Positions 4,883 through 19,924 of a stretch of DNA of 64,000 bases are shown here, in pieces (positions within the stretch are counted from its first letter, which is position 1; each line of letters starts with the position of its first letter). A model generated the notes under the pieces. It saw only the letters and a list, made by a program, of their open reading frames with translations, did no database searches and had not been told where the DNA came from. The position numbers were made by a program, and so were the translations under genes. Source of the DNA: Candidatus Latescibacterota bacterium (GTDB taxonomy: Bacteria; Latescibacterota; UBA2968; UBA8231). The DNA is taken from the NCBI GenBank assembly GCA_965203175.1, contig OZ241867.1, positions 2,592,001 through 2,656,000 on the forward strand. Direction: 5' to 3'.

Positions 4883-7525
4883 TCACCGCGCGGTTTGGGG
4901 TTTAATGGTGCAGGTGGGACAGACGCGCCGCAGGTGTTCGCGCCGCACCTGCCACAGGTCGTGGGCCTTCACCAATTCGCATTCGGCCTGCCCGACCTTG
5001 CCCCGCCGCTGCAACTTCCTCCGGTCGAGTGTTGAGTCCAGCTTGTGGGTTGGGACCGGGCAGGGGCCATTGCGAAAGGCCAGCCCCAAGATCTCGTCCG
5101 CGGTCCCATCCTCGCGCACGATGCGGTCTGGAATTGCAAAAGATTCAATGCAGCCGCAGGGCACGGACATCTCGGCCACGTGATAGGCCGTGCTCGTATC
5201 GTGCGTCGTGCCCAGCGCGAGGATGTAGCCGCCGCCGTGCACCAATTTGCCGATCGGGCTATCTGGGGCCCAGATGCCGGCTTCGAGGTGTCCGTGGCAA
5301 TAGTCGCTGGCTCGCGGCCCAATCGCCGCCACTGCGTGAGTGGGATGCATGCTGCGCTCGGCCTCTGTGCGCCGCCACAGCGCGTCTGGAATCGCGCCAT
5401 TGGTGGTGGGTGTGGTCAGTCGGTTGAAGACTTTCGCCGCACGGTGGTTGAACGAAGGTGCCAGCAGAGTTCCTCGCTTGCCGACCGCCTGCAAGAGCGC
5501 ATCGACGACGGTTTCAGCGCCGCCCTCGACAAAGCCGATGGCCGACAGGGAGCTGTGGACCATCAAATCCATGCCTGGGGTGACACCCAAGCGGCGCAAA
5601 TCCTTCACTAGTTCCTTGCGGCCGATCATCTTGGCCGGGTCGGTCAACGCGGCATAGCCCAATTCAGCGTGTGCTGCGAAGTAATCGTGCACCCGCTTGA
5701 CGGTGACGGGCCCTTCCGTCCGCGGTCCGGCTGGATAGTCGGCTTCCTCGCAGGCAATGCGCTCGGCGATTTCGCCCAGATTCCGGCGTCCGTCGGCCCA
5801 AAACAGTGCCCACGGCGATAGCTGTGCAGCCGAGATGCGCGCATTGATCGCGGCTGGCGCGTTTTCGCCGGTCGGTGAGAGCACTGCCGTGCGCCGAGGC
5901 ACCAGCCGCGCTTGGGCTGTGCGCCGCGCTTGCTTGTCCGGTAGCGCGGTTTCGGCTGCGGCGGTCGCCACTTGCCGCTCGCTTTCGTCCATGGCCTCCA
6001 AGATCTCGCGCCGACTGCCCCCCCAGAGCCAGCGCGCCAGCCGTCGCACGCTGCGGCTGTGTGCCTCGCGCACGTACTCGGCCTCGGCTCGAGGCCGCTT
6101 TTTCTTGTGTAATACGGAGAGGAAGTGCTGGGTCTCGGTGCGGATCAGCTCCCCCACCTCGCGGCTGCCCATGTCGGCCAAGTAGTACAGATAGGCCGCC
6201 ATCGAGGCCGCGCAGGTCTCCAGCCCTCGCGGGCTGAGCAGTGCTTCCACGTCGGCCGAAGAGTGGTAGGCGTCAAAGCCGCGCCCGCTCTTGCTGTGAT
6301 GCGTGGTGATCCAAGGACAGGGAAATCCGTACTGAGGATCGCCGATCAAGGTGTCAGCCGTCGACATGAACCTTTCTAGATGCACTCGATAGCCAGGCTT
6401 GTGTTGCCGCACTCCGGCCCGCAAAATAGTCTCGCCGACTCGGTCGACGAAACCCGCCGACATGGGGATCGTCGCGTGCCACTCCAGCCGGCTTTCGCAG
6501 ACAGGAGGCCGGGAGCCAACCGAGTCGATACACACGCCGGCCAACGGAGTCTGCAAGCGCCGCACCCTTTCTAGATAGGCGAAAAATCCGTAGCACTCAT
6601 AGGCGTTGAGCAGGCGAATGGTGCGCTTGGGGCGCGCGAGTTTTCCCGCGCGGATAAGCCCTTCGATCACGCGGGCTATCTCTAGGGTAGTGGCCACGCC
6701 CGAAGCGTTGTCTATGGCCCCTGGCTCGCCGCTGTGCGCGATGGCCCACACTTCGTCCTGCGGATCACCTGCTCCCTTGATGACGCCGCTGACCACGTCG
6801 TGGCTGCCGACGTATTTGCGGATATCGGCTCTTACGTGCAGGGTTAGAGGACCGTGCTTCTGCGCTAGCCGCCGCAGTCGCTTCCCTTGCTGCTCAGAGA
6901 TCACAAAGCCCACCAACCGCGCTGTCGCATGAGCTAGGGGTATTGCACCCCATCCGAATTTGGTCCACGCGACTGCGTTGGGCAGGTTGGGCACCGGCCG
7001 GTCGGCGATGACTGCGGTGGCTCCCTTAGCGGCTAAAAGACCGAGGTTAGAGCGCGGGTCTAGCTTGGTCAGCACAATCGCACCAGCAAGTCCGTCGGTT
7101 GGCTGGCGTTGGATGTCTTCGACTTGATCGAGAATCACGAGCCGCAGTCGCAGGCCGCTTGCCGGGGTCGCTGCGCTCCACTGGATGACGTGCCAGGGGT
7201 TCTCCTGCCAATCCAGCACCCGTTTGGCGAGCGGGTGTACCACATCCACAGTCGCGCCCACCACATCGGCGGCCTCGCGGATGATCCACCGGCCCGACCC
7301 AATCCGCCCTCCGGTCTGGATGGACTCGACCTCCACGCGCGCGCCAGCGGCCTCATAGCGGCTCGTTAGCGTGGCTGTCGTTTCGCCGAAGCGATCAAAC
7401 GAATTCCACCGATCGGTCTGTACAACGTCTCGCACCGCCGCCATCATCTCCCGCCCATTCGCCTGCTGCAATATTAGCGGCAAGGTTTGGCGACAGAGCC
7501 GCTGCAATGATTTCGCGCTAGGCAT
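4883..7525 (-). CDS. Fusion of M28/DUF4910-like peptidase-fold domain and AAC(3)-family acetyltransferase
   Basis: AHSGEPGAIDNASGVA, YHSSAD, winged-helix-like WADGRRNLGEIAE, then LGVTPGMDLMVHSSLSAIGFVEGGAETVVDALL..RSMHPTHAVAAIG..TAYHVAE; start set at MPSAK behind AGGAGG. Confidence 0.8.
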   Translation of the reverse strand: MPSAKSLQRLCRQTLPLILQQANGREMMAAVRDVVQTDRWNSFDRFGETTATLTSRYEAAGARVEVESIQTGGRIGSGRWIIREAADVVGATVDVVHPLAKRVLDWQENPWHVIQWSAATPASGLRLRLVILDQVEDIQRQPTDGLAGAIVLTKLDPRSNLGLLAAKGATAVIADRPVPNLPNAVAWTKFGWGAIPLAHATARLVGFVISEQQGKRLRRLAQKHGPLTLHVRADIRKYVGSHDVVSGVIKGAGDPQDEVWAIAHSGEPGAIDNASGVATTLEIARVIEGLIRAGKLARPKRTIRLLNAYECYGFFAYLERVRRLQTPLAGVCIDSVGSRPPVCESRLEWHATIPMSAGFVDRVGETILRAGVRQHKPGYRVHLERFMSTADTLIGDPQYGFPCPWITTHHSKSGRGFDAYHSSADVEALLSPRGLETCAASMAAYLYYLADMGSREVGELIRTETQHFLSVLHKKKRPRAEAEYVREAHSRSVRRLARWLWGGSRREILEAMDESERQVATAAAETALPDKQARRTAQARLVPRRTAVLSPTGENAPAAINARISAAQLSPWALFWADGRRNLGEIAERIACEEADYPAGPRTEGPVTVKRVHDYFAAHAELGYAALTDPAKMIGRKELVKDLRRLGVTPGMDLMVHSSLSAIGFVEGGAETVVDALLQAVGKRGTLLAPSFNHRAAKVFNRLTTPTTNGAIPDALWRRTEAERSMHPTHAVAAIGPRASDYCHGHLEAGIWAPDSPIGKLVHGGGYILALGTTHDTSTAYHVAEMSVPCGCIESFAIPDRIVREDGTADEILGLAFRNGPCPVPTHKLDSTLDRRKLQRRGKVGQAECELVKAHDLWQVRREHLRRVCPTCTIKPQTAR

Positions 7526-7574
7526 GGTCTCCTCCTTTTTTGCTACTAATAAAGGTCGGCGCGTGGATTGGAAC

Positions 7575-7619
7575 AAAAAAGCGGGGAGCTAGCGGACGAA
7601 AAGTCCACCAGCTCCCCGC
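7575..7619 (-). terminator. Intrinsic terminator after the small HTH gene
   Basis: GCGGGGAGCT...AGCTCCCCGC stem followed by TTTTTT on minus strand. Confidence 0.8.
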
Positions 7620-9836: not shown

Positions 9837-11249
9837 GTGTCCCAAAACGTCAGCGAAGAACACGTACGCAAAATAGTCGAAGAAGTGGTGCAGCGCGTCG
9901 TCAGCGGCGGAGACGGCAGCGGGAGTGGGGACACCGGTGTCTTCGCGACGGTTGACGCGGCCGTCCAAGGCGCTATTCGCGCCCAGCAGCAGTTGGTGGC
10001 CTTGTCACTGGAGGAGCGCAAAAAGATCGTCGAGGCCCTCCGGCAGACGGCGCACGTCCACGCCGAGGAATTTTCGCGGCGGGCCTTGGCCGAGACGGGC
10101 ATGGGGCGGTTGGAAGACAAAATCATCAAGCACCAAGTCGCGGCCGACACGACGCCCGGCGTCGAAGACCTAGAGGCCACTTCGTGGACTGGTGACCACG
10201 GGCTGACCGTGGTTGAAATGGCTCCTTACGGGGTCATCGGCGCGGTCACCCCATCGACCCATCCCGTGCCGACGATGGTCAACAACGCCATTTGCATTGT
10301 CGCCGCGGGCAACTCGGTCGTCTTCAACGTGCATCCGGCGGGCAGAAAGGTCTCCATGTTCGCGGTGGGCTTGATCAATCAGGCCATCGTCGCAGTTGGC
10401 GGACCGGCCAACTTGGTGACCGCGGTCGAAACGCCGACCATTGAGACGGCCAGCGAATTGTTCAATCACCCAGATATCCGCCTGCTGCTGGTCACAGGCG
10501 GGCCAGGCGTGGCCAAGGCCGCGATGGGTAGCCCCAAAAAGGCCATCGTCGCCGGCCCGGGCAATCCGCCGGTGGTCGTCGATGAAACGGCCGATTTGGC
10601 CAAGGCCGCGCGCGACATCATCGACGGGGGAGGCTTTGACAACAACATTCTCTGCATCGGCGAGAAGCAGGTCTTTGCCGTCACTTCCATTGCCGACGAG
10701 CTCAAGCGGCTGATGGTCCAATACAATGCGTATGAACTCGACACGCGGCAGATCGAGGCGCTCGCACAGGTGGCCTTTGTCGAAGGGCCGGACGGGCATC
10801 TCGTAGCCAACCGCGAATTGGTGGGGCGCGACGCCGCCGTGTTGGGCGAGCGCATCGGCCTCCGGCTCGACTCGTCGCTGCGCATGCTCATTGGCGAGAC
10901 CGACGCCAACCACGTCTTCGTGCGCGAGGAGCAGATGATGCCTTTTCTGCCGATCGTGCGGATGCCCAACGTCGACCAAGCCATCCGCGAGGCCGTCATC
11001 TCCGAGCACGGCTACGGGCACACGGCCGTGATCCATTCGCGCAACATCGAAAACATGCACAACATGGCCTGCGCCGTGGATACCACCATTTTCGTCAAGA
11101 ACGGTCCTTCCTACGCCGGGGTTGGCTTGGGCGGCGAGGGGTTTGGGACGTACTCGATTGCCGGGCCTACGGGCGAGGGGCTGACGTCGCCGCGCACCTT
11201 TACCCGCCAGCGCCGCTGCGCTCTCGTGGACTACTTCCGCATCACCTGA
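9837..11249 (+). CDS. CoA-acylating aldehyde dehydrogenase (PduP/EutE family) with N-terminal encapsulation peptide
   Basis: APYGVIGAVTPSTHP, TGGPGV, AGPGNPPVVVDETAD, FDNNILCIGEK, GPTGEGLTSPRTFTRQRRC; N-terminus SEEHVRKIVEEVVQRV. Confidence 0.95.
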   Translation: MSQNVSEEHVRKIVEEVVQRVVSGGDGSGSGDTGVFATVDAAVQGAIRAQQQLVALSLEERKKIVEALRQTAHVHAEEFSRRALAETGMGRLEDKIIKHQVAADTTPGVEDLEATSWTGDHGLTVVEMAPYGVIGAVTPSTHPVPTMVNNAICIVAAGNSVVFNVHPAGRKVSMFAVGLINQAIVAVGGPANLVTAVETPTIETASELFNHPDIRLLLVTGGPGVAKAAMGSPKKAIVAGPGNPPVVVDETADLAKAARDIIDGGGFDNNILCIGEKQVFAVTSIADELKRLMVQYNAYELDTRQIEALAQVAFVEGPDGHLVANRELVGRDAAVLGERIGLRLDSSLRMLIGETDANHVFVREEQMMPFLPIVRMPNVDQAIREAVISEHGYGHTAVIHSRNIENMHNMACAVDTTIFVKNGPSYAGVGLGGEGFGTYSIAGPTGEGLTSPRTFTRQRRCALVDYFRIT

Positions 11250-11563
11250 TGCTCTTGGGCCAAGTCAAAGGGCATCTGGTTTCCACGGCCAAGGTCCCGA
11301 GCCTGCACGGCAAGAAGCTCTTAGTCGTCGAAATCGCGTCGGTGCGCGAGCACGGTCTGGTGCTGACAGGGCGGGATATGGTTTGCATCGACGCGGTGCA
11401 AGCGGGCAAGGGCGAGTTGGTGATTTTGGTGCAGGGCAGTTCGTCGCGGATCGCCCCGAACTTGGGCGATGTGCCGACCGACGCGGTAATCGTCGGGATT
11501 GTCGATTCGCTACAGGCTATGGGTAAGGACTTCGACTGTCGGCAACTGAGCCGCGAAGGGTAG
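11249..11563 (+). CDS. BMC vertex protein (BMC-P, EutN/CcmL family)
   Basis: MLLGQVKGHLVSTAK..CIDAVQAGKGELVILVQGSSSR..DAVIVGIVD. Confidence 0.95.
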   Translation: MLLGQVKGHLVSTAKVPSLHGKKLLVVEIASVREHGLVLTGRDMVCIDAVQAGKGELVILVQGSSSRIAPNLGDVPTDAVIVGIVDSLQAMGKDFDCRQLSREG

Positions 11564-11566
11564 GCG

Positions 11567-12247
11567 ATGAACGTTGCACCAGCGGCTGGATTGGACCGCA
11601 AGCAGATTGAGGCGCTGGTGCGTCGGGTGGTGTACGATCACCTGCCCGATGCTCAGCTAGAGCAGGCACCCTCAGCTCCGAGGCTGGTCGTCAATATGTC
11701 CGCCCGCCACGTCCACCTCAATCGAGAGGCGCTGGACGCGCTCTTTGGCGCGGGTGCCGAGCTGACCGTGCAGAAGGCCCTGTACCAGGAAAGCGCTTTT
11801 GCCGCCGAGCAGACGGTGTCGGTTTTTGGCCCGCGCAAGCAGGTGATTCCCAGTGTGCGAATCCTCGGCCCATTGCGCGATTACAACCAGGTGGAGTTGG
11901 CCTTTACGGACGCCCGCTATTTGGGCATTGACGCGCCGGTGCGGCTCAGCGGCAACATCGAGGGGACGCCGGGCTGCTACTTGGTGGGGCCAGCTGGGGG
12001 GCTGGAATTGGATCACGGGGTGATTCGGGCCGCCCGCCACGTGCATTTAAACCCGGAAGAGGCCGCGTACTACGGAGTCGGGCCGGGAGACTTGCTGCGG
12101 CTGGTAGTAGAAGGCGATCAGGGCGGGGTGCTGGAAGGGTTGATCTGCCGAGTCAGCGAGCGCGAACGCCTAGAAGTTCACATCGATACGGACGAGGGCA
12201 ATGCGATTGATTTGGTACACGCCCGCAAGGTATATTTAGAGCGTTGA
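11567..12247 (+). CDS. pduL: PduL phosphotransacylase with N-terminal encapsulation peptide
   Basis: VNMSARHVHL, VRILGPLR, APVRLSG, RAARHVHL, HIDTDEGNA; N-terminus DRKQIEALVRRVVYDHL. Confidence 0.95.
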   Translation: MNVAPAAGLDRKQIEALVRRVVYDHLPDAQLEQAPSAPRLVVNMSARHVHLNREALDALFGAGAELTVQKALYQESAFAAEQTVSVFGPRKQVIPSVRILGPLRDYNQVELAFTDARYLGIDAPVRLSGNIEGTPGCYLVGPAGGLELDHGVIRAARHVHLNPEEAAYYGVGPGDLLRLVVEGDQGGVLEGLICRVSERERLEVHIDTDEGNAIDLVHARKVYLER

Positions 12248-12285: not shown

Positions 12286-12846
12286 ATGTCGGATGCAATA
12301 GGCATGGTAGAAACCGTGGGGCTAGTCGGGGTCGTCGAGGCCGGCGACGCCATGGCCAAGGCCGCTAGCGTACAGCTTTTGGGCTGGGACCGAGTCGGCT
12401 CTGGCTTGGTGACTGTGTTTTGCGCGGGCGATGTGGCGGCCGTCAAGTCGGCCGTGGATGCTGGCTCGACTGCTGCTGCCAAGGTCGGGGAGGTGCATTC
12501 GGTCCACGTGATTCCCCGCCCGCACAGCGAACTGACGACCGTCGTGCCCGAACGCGGCGACAGCGGCGACAGCGATGGCCGCGTCCGCGCCTTGGGTCTT
12601 ATTGAGACGAAGGGGTCCATCGGCGTGATCGAAGCGGCCGACGCCATGAGCAAGGCCGCCAATGTGGAGGTCGTCAAGCTGCAGGACATCGGCGGCGGGT
12701 ACATCACCGTCATAGTTAGTGGCGACGTCGGCTCGGTGCAGGCTTCGGTCAGCGCCGGTGCCGAGGCGGCCGAGCGCGTGGGCGAGCTCGTATCGCAACA
12801 CGTGATTCCCCGCCCGCACGACGATCTCGTCGCGCTGTATTTGTAG
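12286..12846 (+). CDS. Tandem BMC shell protein (two PduA-like domains)
   Basis: Two copies of A(I/L)G(M/L)xET.G..A.DAM.KAA..GDV..V..HVIPRPH. Confidence 0.93.
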   Translation: MSDAIGMVETVGLVGVVEAGDAMAKAASVQLLGWDRVGSGLVTVFCAGDVAAVKSAVDAGSTAAAKVGEVHSVHVIPRPHSELTTVVPERGDSGDSDGRVRALGLIETKGSIGVIEAADAMSKAANVEVVKLQDIGGGYITVIVSGDVGSVQASVSAGAEAAERVGELVSQHVIPRPHDDLVALYL

Positions 12847-12858
12847 AGGAGACAAATA

Positions 12859-13122
12859 ATGAAAGCATTGGGTATGGTCGAGACTCGCGGTTTGGTCTGC
12901 GTCGTCGAAGCCCTCGACGCCATGTTGAAGACCGCGGACGTGAGCTATGCGGGCCAAAAGCGCGTGGGTAGCGGCCTAATCGCCGTGCTGGTCGAAGGCG
13001 ACGTAGCGGCTGTCAAAGCGGCCGTAGATGCGGGAGCGCAAGCCGCCCAGCGCATCGGCGAGCTGCGCAGCGTCCACGTGATTCCCCGTCCAACTGAGGG
13101 ACTGACAGACCACCTTGGTTAG
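12859..13122 (+). CDS. BMC-H hexamer shell protein
   Basis: [42 protein letters not shown]. Confidence 0.96.
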
Positions 13123-13126
13123 CTAG

Positions 13127-13573
13127 GTGACCGAGGCTTTGCACATCGACGCTCCGGTCGTCACCGGCGATTTGCTCGGGCGCGAGCACAAGGGCGAGCG
13201 GACGCTCAGCGTGTCCCCCAGCGCCATCTTGACGCCGACGGCTTGGGACTACATCCGCCAGCACCGCTTGCAGCTAAGTCGCGGCGAGGCCGTTGCCGCT
13301 GCCGAGGCCGTTGCGGACGCGGGCCGGTGCGAGCATCCCGACCGCGCCTGCGGCTGCGAGCACGAGGAATTTGGCTCGGGGTACGTCGAGCCAGCGCACT
13401 GCGGCGATTGCGCCGTCCACGAGCGCAAGAAGGCGGGCGACCCCGAGGCGAATTGTGAGGGTTGCAATCGCTACAAGACGCTTTTGCAACAAATCGAAAA
13501 GGGCCAAGCCTCCGATCCAGAAGCCTTAATTGAGCAGATCACCGAGCTAGTAATTCACCGGCTGGCGGACTAA
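13127..13573 (+). CDS. Cys-rich BMC-associated protein with EutQ-N-like domain and C-terminal encapsulation peptide
   Basis: VVTGD..ILTPTAWDYIR N-domain; seven Cys including two CxxC; C-terminus DPEALIEQITELVIHRL. Confidence 0.75.
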   Translation: MTEALHIDAPVVTGDLLGREHKGERTLSVSPSAILTPTAWDYIRQHRLQLSRGEAVAAAEAVADAGRCEHPDRACGCEHEEFGSGYVEPAHCGDCAVHERKKAGDPEANCEGCNRYKTLLQQIEKGQASDPEALIEQITELVIHRLAD

Positions 13574-13576
13574 GCT

Positions 13577-14161
13577 ATGGCGGGCGACCCGGCAGTCGGC
13601 ATGATCGAGGTGCAGGGCGTGGCCGCTGCCATTGTGGGTGCGGATGCGGCCTGCAAGGCTGCGGAAGTGAAGCTCGCAGGTTGGTCCTCAATCGGCGGTT
13701 ATACCACGGCTTTTTTTACTGGGTCGATCAGCGATGTAGCCGCGGCGCTGCGAAGCGGCGAGGAAGCGGCCCGCGAAATAATAGAACACGTAGTGGCCGC
13801 GCCTTTACTCCAACCCGCCGCTGCTTGCAGTCATTTCATCGATTTTCCGGTCCGGTCCGACAGCGACTTTCCCGCCGGTGCCTTGGGATTGGTCGAGACG
13901 CGCGGCTATGGGGCTCACATTCACACGAATGATCAGATGGTTAAGACGGCTGCCGTCGCGGTCGTCAACGTGCTGACGGTCCACGACCGCGTGGTGTGTT
14001 CGCTGGTCTTGGGAGACGTTGGGGCTGTCAAAGAAGCCATAGCCGTCGCGCAAAAGTTGCTCGGGGACTGCGAGCACTTGTTGGGCACGGCCCTGGTTCC
14101 GCAGCCGCGGCCCGAGGTCTTGGCTGCATACGCCGCGCCGATGGGAGGTGGTGGTGTCTAG
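13577..14161 (+). CDS. Divergent tandem BMC shell protein (two domains)
   Basis: AVGMIEVQG..DAACKAA..; ALGLVETRG..DQMVKTA..GDVGAVKEAI. Confidence 0.88.
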   Translation: MAGDPAVGMIEVQGVAAAIVGADAACKAAEVKLAGWSSIGGYTTAFFTGSISDVAAALRSGEEAAREIIEHVVAAPLLQPAAACSHFIDFPVRSDSDFPAGALGLVETRGYGAHIHTNDQMVKTAAVAVVNVLTVHDRVVCSLVLGDVGAVKEAIAVAQKLLGDCEHLLGTALVPQPRPEVLAAYAAPMGGGGV

Positions 14162-15302
14162 CGGGGCGATTGGCATGCTGGAGACGCGCGGGATGGCGTC
14201 GCTGATGGCTTCTACCGATGCCATGCTCAAGGCCGCTGAAGTACAACTCTGCGGTCGGCACGGTATTGGCTCGGGTTGGCTCACTGCGGTAATCGCCGGT
14301 CAAGTAGCTGATGTGGAGGCGGCCATTCGCGTTGGCGAGGTCGAGGCGAACCGCACCGGTGAACTGATCGGCGCGCAAGTGGTGCCACGGCCAGACGCGC
14401 GCGCCATGGACGCCATGCCCCACGCAACCGGTCTTGGTGCCGAACAGGTACAGCCGCAGGCAATTGGCTTATTGGAGACGCAGGGCCTGACGCCGCTGGT
14501 GGCCGGTGCCGACGCCATGCTCAAGGCCGCCCAAGTGGAGCTAGGGGGTTGGGCCTTCATCGGGGGCGCGCTGTGTCACGCGCCGATCTTTGGCGATGTA
14601 GCGGCCGTGCAGACGGCGTTAGAAGTGGGCCGGCAAGCAGCCGAGCGGATTGGCACCGTGTACGCGACTCTTGTTTTGCCCCAGCCCAGCGAGGGGCTAG
14701 GTCCTCTGTTGCCGCCCGCGCCAGCGGTCGAGCTGCGCTCCACCGGTGCCTTGGGCCTCATAGAGACCATTGGTTACGCCTCGGTCGTGGGCAGTGCGGA
14801 CGCCATGCTCAAGGCCGCGGATGTCCAAATCGAGCGCTTGAGCATTGGTAGCGGCGGGCGGATTACCGCGCTGGCTACCGGCCATCTCGACGACGTGCAG
14901 GCCGCAGTGCGCGCCGGTGCCGAGGCAGCCACGGCTTTGGGGGAGTTCGACGCCTCGGCCGTAGTCTCGCGGCCCGATCCCGCGCTCGTCGCCCGTTTTG
15001 CCACTGCGGCCGAGGGCCTTGGCGCGGGTGCGCGGCAGGCCATGGGGCTGATTGAGACGCGCAGTACCGTGGCCTTGGTGCGAGCCGTCGATCGGATGCT
15101 CAAGGCCGCAGCCGTCGAATACGAGGGAGCCTATAAGGTGGGGTACTACTTGACGGCCGCGGTCGTGCGCGGCGATGTGGGTGCCGTGCAGGTCGCGATA
15201 GATGCGGGTCGGAAGGAGGCTGTTGAACACGGGGAACTGGTTTCGGCCTACGCAATTCCGCAGCTCTACAGCGGCCTCGAAGGCCGCCTGCCGCACGTTT
15301 AG
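14148..15302 (+). CDS. BMC shell protein with four tandem BMC domains
   Basis: Four AxGxxET..D(A/R)MLKAA..G.V..V units in one uninterrupted 384-aa ORF; GGAGG RBS favours GTG at 14154. Confidence 0.9.
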   Translation: MVVSSGAIGMLETRGMASLMASTDAMLKAAEVQLCGRHGIGSGWLTAVIAGQVADVEAAIRVGEVEANRTGELIGAQVVPRPDARAMDAMPHATGLGAEQVQPQAIGLLETQGLTPLVAGADAMLKAAQVELGGWAFIGGALCHAPIFGDVAAVQTALEVGRQAAERIGTVYATLVLPQPSEGLGPLLPPAPAVELRSTGALGLIETIGYASVVGSADAMLKAADVQIERLSIGSGGRITALATGHLDDVQAAVRAGAEAATALGEFDASAVVSRPDPALVARFATAAEGLGAGARQAMGLIETRSTVALVRAVDRMLKAAAVEYEGAYKVGYYLTAAVVRGDVGAVQVAIDAGRKEAVEHGELVSAYAIPQLYSGLEGRLPHV

Positions 15303-15316
15303 CGAGGACGCGAAAA

Positions 15317-16498
15317 ATGATTCGGATTGACGATGCAGTAATTACCGCGCAGACCTTGGAGGGCCGCCTAGCTGGCGAACGGCAGGTCGAGATCGGCCCG
15401 GGGTCTAAACTGACGCCCTCGGCACAGGACTTTTTGCACGCCCAAGGCATTGAAATCGTGCGCCGGGAAGCCAGCGGCCAAGCTCCTCCAACGACAACAC
15501 TGGCACCAGCACCGGCACCGGCGGGTCCTCGCGCGGCCGAACGCCAGCCATTTGCTGGCATCTTCTGCCCCAATGTCGTCCTTTTCGACAGTCAGAACGA
15601 GATCAACCACGCCGAGATGGAGCGCTACATCAACTGGTTAATCGAGGTTGGGATCCACGGGCTGTACCCCAACGCCAGCACTGGCGAGTTCGCGCGCCTG
15701 TCGCAGAAGGAGCGCCAAGACGTGGTGCGGCTGGTCTGCGAGGTCAACAAGGGACGCGTACCCGTACTGGCCGGAGCCAGCGAGGCCAGCTTGCGCGACG
15801 TGCTCAAGATGGCCGAATACTACGCCTCGCTCGGCGTGGATGCCATTGCACTGATGCCCCCCTATTACTACGAAATTTCCACTGAGAGCCTCTTTGAGTA
15901 CTTCGCCGAAATCGCCGGGGAATCGCCGCTGGATATCCTGCTGTGCAATATCCCGCAATTTACCCAAGAGCTGTCGATAGATTTGCTGGAGCGGCTCTTG
16001 CCCTACGATCGGATTTTCGGCATCAAGGACTCCAGCCGCGACCTGCCGAGGCTGCTCAACACCATGAACTGCCTGCGCCAACAGCGCCCCGACTACGTGG
16101 TGATGACTGGTTGCGAGGAGATCGTGTTTCCCTCGGTGCTCATGGGAGCCAACGGAGGCACCATCGCCACTTCGGGTATCGTCCCGGAAGTCATTGTCGA
16201 GCTTTATGAAAAGGCCAAAAGCGATGACATTGAGCGGGCCCGCGAACTGCAATACCGCATCCTCGATCTCATCAACTTGATGCTCCTTGGGGTCAATTTC
16301 CCAGAGGGCTTCAAGACTGGCGTGGCGGCCCGTGGCTTTGACGTCGGCCCAGCGCGCGCGTCGAGCAGCGCGTCCGAACAGGAGTACCTGATCAAGCTAG
16401 AGGCCCAAATCAACTGCGTCCTCGCGGATATGGGCTATCCAGTCCAAGGCCCCCGCGCCTGCCCGGCGACCAACCTGCCGCCGATCGTCGGTCGCTAG
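15317..16498 (+). CDS. DHDPS/NAL-family class I aldolase with N-terminal BMC-associated domain
   Basis: NASTGEF, MPPYYY, LCNIP, IFGIKDSS; N-terminal VITAQ..KLTPSAQDFL domain plus Pro/Ala/Thr linker. Confidence 0.9.
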   Translation: MIRIDDAVITAQTLEGRLAGERQVEIGPGSKLTPSAQDFLHAQGIEIVRREASGQAPPTTTLAPAPAPAGPRAAERQPFAGIFCPNVVLFDSQNEINHAEMERYINWLIEVGIHGLYPNASTGEFARLSQKERQDVVRLVCEVNKGRVPVLAGASEASLRDVLKMAEYYASLGVDAIALMPPYYYEISTESLFEYFAEIAGESPLDILLCNIPQFTQELSIDLLERLLPYDRIFGIKDSSRDLPRLLNTMNCLRQQRPDYVVMTGCEEIVFPSVLMGANGGTIATSGIVPEVIVELYEKAKSDDIERARELQYRILDLINLMLLGVNFPEGFKTGVAARGFDVGPARASSSASEQEYLIKLEAQINCVLADMGYPVQGPRACPATNLPPIVGR

Positions 16499-17575
16499 AT
16501 GGCCCTGACGGGCGCACGCGTGTTGGTGGTCGGGGCCGGTATCATCGGCCGCTCGACGGCCTATTTCCTCGCCCGGCAAGGCGCGCAGGTCGTCCTGCTC
16601 GACGAGGGGATCCCTACAGGCTCGCCCACGAGCCGGGCCTCGTTGGGCGTCCTCACCCACTGCAACGGCGGCGACAATCCCTACGCCCAGCTTTTCCGCG
16701 ACGGTCACGCTTTGCACGCCCGGCTGGCCCGCGACCTAGCCGAAGACGTGGGCGCAGACGTGGGTTGGCGTCCCCTCGGCGGTATCGATCTTTTTGCCGA
16801 CCCATCCCAGCTAGAGGAGGTATGGCGCTTCAACCACGAGCGCGGCTGTCGGGTCGAGCGGCTCGACGAGCGGGCCTTGCGCGATGCGGAGCCGGGGTTG
16901 GACGACGGTGGTGAGGGGCTGTATTTTGCCGATGATCATCGGGTGGATCCCCTCAAGTTGGGCGCGGCGCTTTGGGCGGCGGCCGTACAGCAGGGTGCGT
17001 CTGCTGCTTGGGGTGCGCGCGTCTGGCGCATTGCCCAAGAAGGCGAGACCGTCGAGGTCGCCACCAGTCGCGAAATTTACCGCGCCGACTTTGCGGTGTT
17101 GGCGGCTGGGGCGTGGACCGGTGGCTTGGCAGCGCAGCTCGGTGCCCAAGTTGCGCTGCGTCCGGTGCGGGGCCAACAAGCGCGTTTTGTAGGTGCCCCA
17201 TTGCGTCACTTAGTGAGGATAAACGGACGCCACTTCATTCCAGACGGCGGCGAAACCATCGTGGGAGCGACGTCGGAGGAGGTCGGCTTTCGGTTGGAGA
17301 CGACCCGTGCAGCCGCTGAGCAATTTGCCTCGGAGGTGCGCTCTGCACTGGGGAACTGCTTGCCGCTGTCGCGCCAGCAGGCCGGTCTGCGGCCCAAGCC
17401 CCGAGGCGGGCGTCCGCTCATCGGTCCGCTGACGGATGCGCCGCGCGTTTTCGTGGCCTCTGGGCACTACAAAAACGGCGTCTTGCTAGGCCCGATTACC
17501 GGCCAAATCGTCGCCCGTTGGATCGCCGAGGGAACCCCGGGGCGCGATATGCGCCGCTTCGCACCCGAGCGTTGA
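16499..17575 (+). CDS. FAD-dependent oxidoreductase (glycine oxidase/D-amino acid oxidase family)
   Basis: VVGAGIIG, LAAGAW, PVRGQ, AGLRP, GHYKNGVLLGPITG. Confidence 0.9.
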   Translation: MALTGARVLVVGAGIIGRSTAYFLARQGAQVVLLDEGIPTGSPTSRASLGVLTHCNGGDNPYAQLFRDGHALHARLARDLAEDVGADVGWRPLGGIDLFADPSQLEEVWRFNHERGCRVERLDERALRDAEPGLDDGGEGLYFADDHRVDPLKLGAALWAAAVQQGASAAWGARVWRIAQEGETVEVATSREIYRADFAVLAAGAWTGGLAAQLGAQVALRPVRGQQARFVGAPLRHLVRINGRHFIPDGGETIVGATSEEVGFRLETTRAAAEQFASEVRSALGNCLPLSRQQAGLRPKPRGGRPLIGPLTDAPRVFVASGHYKNGVLLGPITGQIVARWIAEGTPGRDMRRFAPER

Positions 17576-17608
17576 ATTCACTGCCACTAAACACAGTTGA
17601 GGTTAAAC

Positions 17609-18550
17609 ATGCCATTGCAAAAAGAAGACCTACTCGCCGTGCTAAACTCGGTTACCTCCATTCCGGTGGTCCCTTTTCGCGGCGGGCAAATCGACTACGA
17701 GGCCCACGCCAAGAACATCAACTACTTGATGGAGAACAATCACTTGGACGGCGCCCGGCCCCGGGTGATTGGCATCGCCGGCACCAGCTTGATCCACCAC
17801 ATTAGCGCGGATGAGCAAGTGCGGTTGTTGGGCTTTACCGGCCAGCAGATGGGGGGACGCGGGGTGCTGATGTCCGGGCTTGCTCCCAATCCGGTTGGGG
17901 ATGCCGAGCGGTTGATCGAGCGGGAGGCCGCGCTCGAATATCCCCCGGATGTCTATCTCGTCATGCCGCTTACGGGCGTGGCCAGTCCAGAGGGCATTTT
18001 CGCGTACTACGTGGATTTTGCCGAGCGGTTGGGGCGTTCGTGCGGGGCCAAGTTGCTCTACTACCTGCGCAACCAAGCCGAGCGCGAGATAGCCGTGCGG
18101 CTGATGAACGAGTCCGAGCACTTCGTGGGGTTGAAGATCGGCACTACGGTTGATGATGTTGAGCCGATTGTCGCGGGTGTGGAAGAGGGGGCTGCGTTGG
18201 TGATTTGGGGCGTGGGGGATCGCTCGACTGGGCCGGCTGAGCGCGGCACCAAGGGGCATACGTCGGGGATTAACGTGGCCTTTGCCCGCGCTTCAGACGA
18301 GATCAACAACGCCCAGCGTCGAGGTGATTTTGCGACCTCGCAGCAGATTGAAGACAAGCTTGCGGCTCTAGAGGGAATTCGCTTCCGCGATGGCCGTATG
18401 TACAACTACTCGGCTGTGGTTGAGGCCATGCACTTGGGGGGGTTCAGCGATGTGGATGGCGGCGAGGGTGGTCCGTTCAATCCTCGGGTGCCTAAGGAAG
18501 TGGCAGAGGAAGTGGCTGCGGCCATCGCCGATATTGTGGACTATCACTAG
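17609..18550 (+). CDS. Second, divergent DHDPS-family enzyme (lyase/dehydratase-like)
   Basis: IPVVPFRGGQIDYEA, LLYYLRN, FVGLKIG (Schiff-base Lys position); start refined to MPLQK. Confidence 0.75.
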   Translation: MPLQKEDLLAVLNSVTSIPVVPFRGGQIDYEAHAKNINYLMENNHLDGARPRVIGIAGTSLIHHISADEQVRLLGFTGQQMGGRGVLMSGLAPNPVGDAERLIEREAALEYPPDVYLVMPLTGVASPEGIFAYYVDFAERLGRSCGAKLLYYLRNQAEREIAVRLMNESEHFVGLKIGTTVDDVEPIVAGVEEGAALVIWGVGDRSTGPAERGTKGHTSGINVAFARASDEINNAQRRGDFATSQQIEDKLAALEGIRFRDGRMYNYSAVVEAMHLGGFSDVDGGEGGPFNPRVPKEVAEEVAAAIADIVDYH

Positions 18551-18849
18551 CCCTCGTTGCGCAGCCGCTCTAGATAGGCCGCCCATTCGACGGGGAGCAG
18601 GTGTTGCTTTTGGCTGTTGCAGTGCTTGCAGCAAGGCACCACGTTGGACTTGGTGGTGCGGCCGCCGCGGATGAGCGGCACTACGTGATCCATGGTCAGT
18701 TCATCGGGCGGGAATGACTGCTGGCAGTAGTGACATTGGCCAGCAGCCCGTTTGCGCTTCCACCATTGGGAACGGCGCAGTTCCTTGGCCTTGTTTTTCT
18801 CTCGGGCGACGTGCTCGGCGTCGGCTGGGACGAAGTATGTGTTTTCCAT
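18547..18849 (-). CDS. Small HNH endonuclease
   Basis: CHYC..LTMDHVVPLIRGG..NVVPCCKHCNSQK. Confidence 0.9.
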   Translation of the reverse strand: MENTYFVPADAEHVAREKNKAKELRRSQWWKRKRAAGQCHYCQQSFPPDELTMDHVVPLIRGGRTTKSNVVPCCKHCNSQKQHLLPVEWAAYLERLRNEG

Positions 18850-19012
18850 GCGAAAGCAAGATAGCGCAGAATGGGCATAGCACAAATGAACGCCAGCGAA
18901 GCCGATACCAGAGGCGAGCTCATTTGCGATGCTCTAGCGCTTGCAATAGGTGCAAGGAGGCTATTGACGCTATGCCATCGGCCATGCTGCGGCGAGTTTT
19001 TGCGAGAAAGGT

Positions 19013-19924
19013 ATGATGGGTAATTTCTCGCCACAAACAATTGAAGCTCTGGCGATCACTATTACTGGTGGTTCTTTCTCAGATTCCACCAGTCCTGTTC
19101 CTAGCAAATATCGTGCTGGTTGGGAATTGGAACAGTTCTTCAGAGGGATCGAGGTATCGTTTCAAATAGATAAAAGGTCTCGTGTCTCTGCTGTTCGCGA
19201 GTGCTTGGAGGACTTGAATATTAGCAATCCCACCAAGATAAAAGAGGCCATTCAAGCTATATGTGATCCACGTGAATACCTTGATGAAGAAGACGATCTC
19301 AGGGAAATCGTGGTTTATCTAAATAAACGGTTGAAATTCGACGGGTTTGAGCTTTGGGAGGAGGGAGGGTTCTACAGATTAGTATCAACCAATATAGTAG
19401 GAGCTCCCGCCAATGATCTCCAAGCCACTATTAATCTAACTGACTATGACTCGGTTAAGACGGACTTTGAGAGAGCCGTAAATGCCATCGAAAAAGATCC
19501 AGAAGACGCTATAACTGCTGCCTGTTCCATTGTTGAGAGCGTTTGTAAGTGCATCCTATATCAGATGAAGAAATCTTACCCCAAAAAGCAGGACATCAAG
19601 GGTTTGGTCACTGAAGTAGGAAAGCACCTGAATCTCTCACCGGCACGAAGTGACCTCCCTTCTGAGATATCTGGCGATATCAAGCAAATTTTGTCTGGCT
19701 TGATTAGCGTCACTTCAGGTATCGGTGCACTGAGAACACATAGTGGAGACGCGCACGGACGTGGCAGAAAGAGAGTACCTGTGGATGCTCGTATCGCTCG
19801 TCTAGCAATCCACGCTGCCAGCACTATATCGCTCTTCTATATCGAGACATGGAACCGCATTACGGCGGTAAAAAAAGATAATGATAAAGAGGCGAGAAAA
19901 AGCGATCCAAACAGCGATAACTAG
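19013..19924 (+). CDS. Abortive infection family protein (Abi_C C-terminal domain)
   Basis: DPEDAITAACSIVESVCKCIL..KQILSGL..GIGALRTHSGDAHG (RxxxxxxH); AT-richer than flanks. Confidence 0.8.
   Translation: MMGNFSPQTIEALAITITGGSFSDSTSPVPSKYRAGWELEQFFRGIEVSFQIDKRSRVSAVRECLEDLNISNPTKIKEAIQAICDPREYLDEEDDLREIVVYLNKRLKFDGFELWEEGGFYRLVSTNIVGAPANDLQATINLTDYDSVKTDFERAVNAIEKDPEDAITAACSIVESVCKCILYQMKKSYPKKQDIKGLVTEVGKHLNLSPARSDLPSEISGDIKQILSGLISVTSGIGALRTHSGDAHGRGRKRVPVDARIARLAIHAASTISLFYIETWNRITAVKKDNDKEARKSDPNSDN

Follow-up and report, generated by a model that had tools for sequence, protein, structure and literature searches.

A four-domain bacterial microcompartment shell protein and its constant two-domain partner in Latescibacterota: a candidate for a fully asymmetric shell tile

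Shells of bacterial microcompartments (BMCs) are described as being built of hexamers with six single-domain chains, trimers with three two-domain chains, and pentamers. In the main text of a 2021 catalogue, BMC-T proteins are two-domain fusions, and five hexagonal building blocks are counted (PMC8217296). The class closest to the proteins treated here, BMC-T(s), is represented by PduT (PDB 3pac, 3n79) and carries non-permuted PF00936 domains in one chain, separated by linkers of about 20 residues. Three copies of this chain, or 3 x 2 domains, make up a hexagon-shaped pseudohexamer with a three-fold symmetric pore. Here we describe two neighbouring genes, A and B, in a stretch of 64,000 nucleotides from the genome of a Candidatus Latescibacterota bacterium (GCA_965203175.1, contig OZ241867.1, positions 2,592,001 to 2,656,000 of the forward strand). 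This whole stretch is called the window below, and feature coordinates refer to it unless stated otherwise. Gene A encodes two BMC domains and gene B four in a single chain, and structure prediction together with the conservation of the pair suggests that their products probably form a 1:1 heterodimeric, fully asymmetric pseudohexameric shell tile.

The gene pair and its six domains

Domain content, conservation, strict pairing and gene junction of A and B can be read directly from the genomes. Gene A (13577..14161, forward strand) is an open reading frame for a shell protein of 194 residues whose two BMC domains, A1 and A2, are divergent, and gene B (14154..15302, or 14148-15302 when counted from its first GTG, forward strand) is one for a shell protein with four, B1 to B4. 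A Pfam search finds PF00936 in two stretches of A (E 1.1e-31, 109 bits) and in four stretches of B (E 6.4e-78, 257 bits). In a scan of the whole genome, the individual domains score 53.6-77.5 bits against this profile, whose gathering cut-off is 24.5 bits, and indeed every sequence criterion tested places both proteins in the BMC shell family. The scan locates A1 at 13592..13795, A2 at 13880..14107, B1 at 14166..14393, B2 at 14460..14687, B3 at 14748..14975 and B4 at 15039..15263, all on the forward strand. None of them is circularly permuted; they are colinear with positions 1-75 of the Pfam profile (1-71 in A1) and with the neighbouring BMC-H protein. The linkers between the domains measure about 20-28 residues throughout, and that of the neighbouring BMC-T protein measures 22.

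Each of the six positions has a pore loop of its own, which is retained in family alignments of 46 A and 45 B sequences with identity down to 54%. A1 carries SIGG(Y/F)TT, or GW.SIGG(Y/F)TT in the wider pattern, with G40, G41, T43 and T44 invariant. A2 carries an atypical loop, TVH(D/N)RVVC (LTVH(D/N)RVVC in the wider pattern), in which R138, V139, V140 and C141 are invariant and H136 is kept in at least 90% of the sequences. The loops of B are GRHGIGSGW in B1 (invariant G36, H38, G41 and W44), GWAFIGGAL in B2 (G134, W135, G139 and L142), IGSGGR in B3 (G236, G237 and R238) and YKVGY(Y/F)LTA in B4 (K330, G332 and Y333). The edge lysine of BMC shell proteins, within the motif D-x-x-x-K, serves tile-tile packing. 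All six edge lysines are invariant here: K27 in the DAACK motif of A1, K123 in the DQMVK motif of A2, and K28, K126, K222 and K319 in B1 to B4, respectively. An earlier note on this DNA, made from the letters alone, had described four BMC domains in 14148-15302, an overlap with a two-domain gene at 13577-14161, a GGAGG ribosome-binding site belonging to B, the motifs DAACKAA, DQMVKTA, DAMLKAA (three times) and DRMLKAA, and the pore loops IGGY, VHDR, IGSGW, IGGA, IGSGG and VGYY. The open reading frames, the PF00936 matches and the sequence itself bear out all of these.

In a tree of 302 single-domain rows and 76 columns, each domain position occupies one clade with one change each, and none of 500 shuffles comes as low. 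The position clades have values of 100 (A1), 100 (A2), 91 (B1), 92 (B2), 98 (B3) and 99 (B4) in the Shimodaira-Hasegawa-like approximate likelihood ratio test (SH-aLRT), and the stems of the A1 and A2 clades are very long, with 1.58 and 1.75 changes per column. Because there is one clade for each position, the six-domain set arose once and has kept its order since; with 76 columns, the tree gives no resolution of the deeper relations between the domains. A derivation of the pair from three copies of a BMC-T gene, with odd and even domains alternating, is hinted at by pairwise identities (A1-B1 47%, A1-B3 46%, B1-B3 45%, B2-B4 43%, A2-B4 36%), whereas the tree, in which B2 and B3 group with support 80, does not settle the matter. 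We therefore make no claim for it.

Conservation of the pair was surveyed in 168 genomes of the phylum, covering 49 genera. B is present in 83 of these genomes and in 17 genera, with identity down to 46%; by family, it is found in 64 of 75 genomes of f1, 16 of 22 of f3 and 2 of 31 of f4. A is present in 84 genomes. At identities that fall to about 46-48%, both proteins are still full-length in 17-18 genera, and contain no internal stops. The two genes are adjacent in all 83 genomes holding B. The lone genome with A and no B, G096, is 85% complete and lies in 980 contigs, and its A is cut at 163 residues by a contig end. Seventy loci were fetched from 69 genomes, one of which is that of the window, and in each of these loci A immediately precedes B as a separate cistron on the same strand. 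The same order holds in 11 of 11 further genome-contig loci with a complete B and in five metagenome contigs encountered incidentally (L172-L174, L176 and L184). PF00936 itself occurs in 152 of the 168 genomes, with 8-16 matches per genome where the A-B pair is present and 1-7 in the 69 BMC-bearing genomes where no pair was found, G096 with its truncated A being counted among the latter. BMC-bearing genomes lacking the pair evidently build their shells, if any, without an A-B tile. The pair-bearing genomes of family f3 (genus g24) have eight matches, that is, A and B plus two.

Relatives are also abundant in a set of 5.8 billion proteins. B has at least 829 of them at E<=1e-10, and the best 120 share 54-100% identity with it, 116 being 369-404 residues long and four 285-322 residues. 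A has 217 relatives at E<=1e-5, and the 120 listed are mostly 181-212 residues long, with two shorter. The source names of these relatives are metagenome-assembled genomes (MAGs) of Gemmatimonadota/Gemmatimonadetes and Latescibacterota, and several of the genomes so labelled come from sponge-related samples according to record titles and run labels.

The junction of the two genes is tight. The GGAGG ribosome-binding site of B lies within the 3′ end of A (14144..14148, forward strand), and a comparable purine-rich segment recurs at the A-B junction of related loci. A ends with TAG at 14159-14161, and GTG codons in the frame of B stand at 14148, 14151 and 14154. Since database gene calls (P0001) give B a length of 382 residues, as against 384 from the GTG at 14148, its start is placed at 14154, which yields an overlap of 8 nucleotides with A. 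The two genes are most likely translationally coupled, as far as their sequences tell. In 69 of the 70 fetched loci, 1-27 nucleotides lie between the stop of A and the first domain residue of B, so that the start codon of B overlaps or abuts the end of A; the exception, L124, has a spacer of 190 nucleotides. A GTG...TAG/TAA overlap is found in 40 loci and TGATG in 20. The frame of A relative to B is 0 in six loci, 1 in 41 and 2 in 23, and because all three occur, read-through or fusion of A and B is no conserved feature. The six same-frame loci (L112, L123, L137, L141, L145 and L149) have one stop codon (TGA in three, TAG in two, TAA in one) and 12-27 nucleotides between A and B; read-through of this stop would yield a six-domain chain, and nothing suggests that it occurs.

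The earlier note had named a domain count below four by hidden Markov model (HMM) and an assembly chimera as fatal to its reading. The HMM count for B is four. A chimera or a gene-call artefact is out, because the four-domain protein recurs full-length in the 83 genomes mentioned, many of which are single-contig assemblies, and 116 of its 120 best relatives have 369-404 residues. The note had also left it to comparison whether the two-domain gene always precedes the four-domain gene or a six-domain fusion exists. The order proved constant in the 70 loci, with no homologue lacking its partner except in G096. A fusion, by contrast, was found neither among the best 120 relatives of B, the longest of which has 404 residues, nor in the 70 loci, where A and B are in different frames or separated by a stop. 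A search for longer relatives of A gave five matches, four of them paralogues of the B family and the fifth P0390; the negative result of this search is weak evidence against a fusion. P0390 (411 residues, one member on one contig) is an A-B read-through full of out-of-frame stretches, and from its sequence we take it to be a sequencing or frameshift artefact. Open frames of 480-791 residues at some matches of B are out-of-frame upstream extensions over A and no fusions. P0188 and P0213, for which six stretches are listed, are tetratricopeptide-repeat (TPR) proteins and not BMC proteins, and matches from Lachnospiraceae and cyanobacteria come from series of single-domain genes or from two-domain genes of the CcmO-like kind, with no four-domain protein.

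A predicted ring and its alternatives

AlphaFold2 predicts B alone as one rigid arrangement of four domains, with a mean predicted local distance difference test score (pLDDT) of 90.3 and a predicted template modelling score (pTM) of 0.89. Two consecutive domains of this model superpose on 6ner, its best fold match, with template modelling (TM) scores of 0.87-0.91 on the target and root-mean-square deviations of 2.0-2.9 Å over 178-190 columns, so that adjacent B domains are modelled in the geometry of a hexamer ring. The complex of A and B was modelled with ESMFold2 and family alignments of its own. Its interaction prediction score from aligned errors (ipSAE) is 0.84 (0.83, 0.84 and 0.84 in the runs) and that of the best of three controls is 0.00; the mark for this score is reached by 58 of 80 solved complexes and by 2 of 110 mismatched pairs. 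The partners have pLDDT values of at least 88, and contacts agree between runs to at least 93%. The 48 interface residues of B fall almost wholly into its terminal domains, with 26 in B1, 21 in B4, one in B2 (pore-loop G139) and none in B3, and those of A are divided between A1 (17) and A2 (27). Because all residue pairs of lowest error are B1-A2 or B4-A1, the model is a ring that closes and runs A1-A2-B1-B2-B3-B4, resembling a six-domain chain with a cut behind the second domain. It is through these two contacts that the 4 + 2 complex put forward in the earlier note closes in the model.

From the model and the comparative data we infer 1:1 binding of A and B, closure of the ring, incorporation into the shell and any part that the asymmetric pore may play in transport or in the docking of enzymes. 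The two products would assemble 1:1 into one hexagon-shaped tile of about 576-578 residues, in which A2 packs on B1 and B4 packs on A1. With six domains all different, such a tile would lack internal symmetry, and the mutual divergence of the domains in the window (pairwise identity 21-47%) argues against a three-fold symmetric arrangement. The lining of its one unique central pore or binding site would consist of small residues contributed by A1, B1, B2 and B3, together with His136/Asp137/Arg138 of A2 and Tyr333 of B4. Arg238 of B3, His38 and Trp44 of B1 and Lys330 of B4 are invariant and stand beside the pore loops in sequence. The asymmetry could serve an asymmetric ligand, an anionic metabolite or a docking site present once per tile. 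Each of the six non-equivalent edges would contribute an edge lysine to packing, and the tile would take its place in the facets of an aldehyde-oxidising metabolosome, composed of acylating aldehyde dehydrogenase, PduL, BMC-P, BMC-T and BMC-H, with a protein of the dihydrodipicolinate synthase (DHDPS) family as its probable signature enzyme. The chains abut, yet no locus seen has them fused, and this suggests that their separation is itself needed, for example for ring closure during folding.

Several points weigh against a 1:1 tile of A and B. The evidence for it is computational throughout. The complex score may reflect likeness to solved hexamers rather than specific binding between A and B, since BMC hexamers are abundant among solved structures and could inflate it. 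Moreover, complex modelling covered A with B only. Residues conserved to at least 90% are modestly enriched at the predicted interface. In B they are 23 of the 48 interface residues, compared with 101 of the 336 others, and in A 20 of 44, compared with 45 of 150. This excess is weak support because the interface includes pore loops and core BMC motifs, which are conserved anyway. Pairing in 83 of 83 genomes does not amount to 83 independent events, the genomes of one phylum being kin. Finally, contigs from RNA libraries (four runs from four studies), mostly 90-95% alike, cover A and B, and contig records 4, 17 and 20 bridge the junction. They are a weak hint, and prove neither that the genes are transcribed nor that one transcript spans both; stretches without cover in runs X1 and X2 carry no meaning.

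The ring of B might instead be completed by two BMC-H proteins or by the 186-residue BMC-T protein, with A forming a BMC-T-like homotrimer of its own and the adjacency of the genes reflecting co-regulation only. The genome offers three BMC-H genes and one BMC-T gene for this purpose, A has the length and the two-domain layout of a standard BMC-T protein, and such combinations lie outside the modelling of A with B. Although these features fit, we regard the arrangement as unlikely in view of the unbroken adjacency of A and B in the 83 genomes, the cistrons that overlap or abut each other in 69 of 70 loci and the f3 genomes, which keep the pair with only eight PF00936 matches. The long stems of A1 and A2 and their atypical, invariant loops are what would be expected of specialised single-copy positions. 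A homotrimer of A would have a pore of three His/Asp/Arg loops and three Gly-Gly loops, and no test result supports it. Pairing with A also bears on a reading in which three B chains build two covalently linked or stacked pseudohexamers, or domain-swapped assemblies, with A forming a tile of its own. Six is not a multiple of four, whereas the twelve domains of 3 x 4 can be divided in this way, and double-stacked trimers are known in the BMC-T(dp) class according to the main text of the catalogue (PMC8217296). However, the strict pairing would then be left without explanation, B is predicted as one rigid arrangement whose neighbouring domains have hexamer-ring geometry, and A fills the remaining gap at both ends of B in the complex model. 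In addition, the linker between B2 and B3, at about 20 residues, does not exceed those between B1 and B2 or between B3 and B4, so that no boundary between two tiles shows, and the alignment has the canonical N-terminal strand first in each domain, unlike the permuted domains of the stacking BMC-T(dp) proteins. Both the 1:1 heterodimer and the three-chain assembly had been offered in the earlier note; pairing, clades and model favour the former, and the latter now seems quite improbable.

It is very improbable that A, B or both are no facet tiles at all, acting as an open four-domain arc in the role of sheet cap, cargo scaffold or assembly regulator, or that they are decaying paralogues. Such a role could be imagined since the placement of A and B in the shell is a prediction only and A1 matches just positions 1-71 of the 75-position Pfam profile. 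Nevertheless, all six edge lysines are invariant, and six intact edges would be needless for a function outside a tile. Decay is excluded by the full-length conservation in 17-18 genera without internal stops and by the confident folds of all domains. All three alternatives run counter to the pairing, the edge lysines, the rigid four-domain arrangement of B and the way in which A is predicted to close the ring on both sides, and a 1:1 tile of A and B is the reading that we consider likely.

The surrounding metabolosome locus

A and B lie in a shell locus that also encodes a pentamer protein and cargo enzymes, with genes for BMC-P, aldehyde dehydrogenase, PduL, BMC-T and BMC-H within 4 kb upstream. 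On the forward strand these are an acylating aldehyde dehydrogenase (9837-11249; PF00171; NF011927, 648 bits), a BMC-P pentamer protein (11249-11563; PF03319), a PduL-type phosphotransacylase (11567-12247; PF06130), a conventional BMC-T protein of 186 residues and two domains (12286-12846; PF00936) and a BMC-H protein of 87 residues (12859-13122; PF00936 in one stretch). They are followed, directly upstream of A, by a gene for a Cys-rich protein of 148 residues that belongs to no Pfam family (13127..13573, forward strand). Downstream of B, and again on the forward strand, lie genes for a DHDPS-family (class I aldolase-like) enzyme of 393 residues (15317..16498; PF00701 at residues 79-365, E 1.2e-53) with an N-terminal extension of about 75 residues, a DAO-family oxidoreductase dependent on flavin adenine dinucleotide (FAD) (16499-17575; PF01266, E 6.7e-57) and a second, divergent DHDPS-like protein (17597-18550; PF00701, E 2.3e-9). 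Against the NCBIfam equivalogs, the DHDPS-family enzyme scores under every cut-off. Presumably, the enzymes of the locus could start from a 2-keto-3-deoxy acid, or from a pyrroline carboxylate derived from hydroxyproline, and yield an aldehyde.

The predicted A-B tile is genetically tied to the DHDPS-family enzyme. In a survey of the 3-kb neighbourhood of 40 diverse A-B loci, the gene for this enzyme lies directly downstream of B in 35, the tightest link of any gene to the pair, and in family f3 it is the sole gene of the locus retained within 3 kb. The gene for the 148-residue protein is found upstream of A in 29 of the 40 loci, and within 3 kb the FAD-dependent oxidoreductase occurs in 28 and the second DHDPS-like protein in 20. 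The N-terminus of the 148-residue protein resembles the extension of the DHDPS-family enzyme (15317-15580; 33% identity over 51 residues, E 8e-9), and its residues 17-49 match TIGR02536 weakly. The common module of about 50 residues weakly resembles TIGR02536, an uncharacterised family of ethanolamine utilisation, in the C-terminal part of that family, and might be a putative shell-binding or encapsulation piece, judging from sequence. By term search, neither 'pfam00701' nor 'dihydrodipicolinate' appears in the main text of the catalogue (PMC8217296). If the enzyme is indeed the signature enzyme, the locus represents an uncharacterised metabolosome type that is widespread in genomes labelled Latescibacterota or Gemmatimonadota.

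Elsewhere in the genome, which is a single contig of 6.58 Mb, shell genes are few. PF00936 has 11 matches, nine in the A-B locus and two in lone BMC-H genes at genome positions 160676-160903 and 4483118-4483339, both on the forward strand. A triplet of BMC-P genes lies far from the locus (C1:3690136-3690934, reverse strand), and together with the scattered shell genes it resembles the FRAG-type loci of the catalogue as given in its main text (PMC8217296). Directly after the BMC locus there are genes for an HNH endonuclease of 111 residues (18547-18885, reverse strand) and for a protein that carries the abortive infection C-terminal domain Abi_C (19013-19924, forward strand); the two may form a small island of defence genes at which the locus ends. 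Upstream, a protein of 896 residues (4883-7576, reverse strand) has an unusual combination of a peptidase M28 domain (residues 281-459) and, at the C-terminus, an aminoglycoside 3-N-acetyltransferase-like domain (residues 671-881).

Significance and comparison with described shell proteins

If A and B do form a 4 + 2 heterodimer, a new assembly rule for BMC shells would follow, and the tile would be the first natural one in which six positions, with their pore residues and edges, are separately encoded and evolvable. It would make it possible to test how a pore without symmetry deals with a ligand that is itself asymmetric, for instance a cofactor or a metabolite of larger size, and whether distinct edges set the orientation or the position of a tile within its facet. 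For engineering, it would provide a natural scaffold with six individually addressable positions at a 1:1 stoichiometry per tile. We lean, by a little, towards regarding such a hard-wired and fully asymmetric tile as a sixth hexagonal building block, which may be a gate or docking site for the DHDPS-family enzyme.

The earlier note had known of no characterised natural shell protein of this kind, and in our literature searches no report turned up that describes more than two BMC domains in one chain. Term searches of the main texts of PMC8217296, 10.1101/2021.01.25.427685, PMC4207490 and PMC4454575 gave no mention of such chains either, and the supplementary locus tables of PMC8217296 may list them. 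In the PDB, no chain longer than 213 residues is found among the 52 distinct sequence matches at E<=1e-10.

A matches BMC-T(s) exactly in length and layout, and like members of that class, A and B contain non-permuted domains in one chain with linkers of similar length. B itself is not a BMC-T(s) protein, since it has four domains and the class demands exactly two. Unlike the three-fold symmetric BMC-T(s) trimer, the tile proposed here would combine 1 x 2 and 1 x 4 domains from two chains in six different positions with no symmetry. BMC-T(dp) and BMC-T(sp) proteins differ further from A and B, whose domains show no circular permutation.

Chains with more than two canonical domains are not unique to A and B, since natural three-domain BMC proteins exist. 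They have about 286-330 residues (P0127, P0128, P0131, P0135, P0141, P0142, P0147, P0148 and P0224, and the frame at L150:4956-5879), and their sources include an Elusimicrobiota MAG and a Dehalococcoidia MAG. They look rare, a complete three-domain frame being present in one of 80 metagenome loci fetched with P0147, and the literature searches yielded no description of them. In many of the other loci a one-domain gene comes immediately after a two-domain gene, as it does at 12286-13122 of the window, and the three-domain form may be a fusion of such a gene pair. Like B, these proteins exceed two canonical domains per chain, and two of their chains would give six.

The best match of B in the PDB, both in sequence (E 9.3e-35) and in fold, is 6ner, an engineered tandem fusion of BMC-H that makes pseudohexamers in a synthetic Haliangium ochraceum shell. 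It demonstrates that linked BMC-H domains fill neighbouring positions of a ring and still build shells. It differs from the A-B tile in being man-made, with two identical domains per chain, and in forming a homotrimer. Natural tiles in which six-fold symmetry is broken also have a parallel, since β-carboxysomes reportedly contain heterohexamers of CcmK3 and CcmK4. These are hexagonal tiles made from more than one gene product, as is proposed for A and B, and they consist of single-domain chains with variable stoichiometry. The chains of A and B, in contrast, carry two and four domains rather than one each, and covalent linkage would fix both the order and the composition of their tile.

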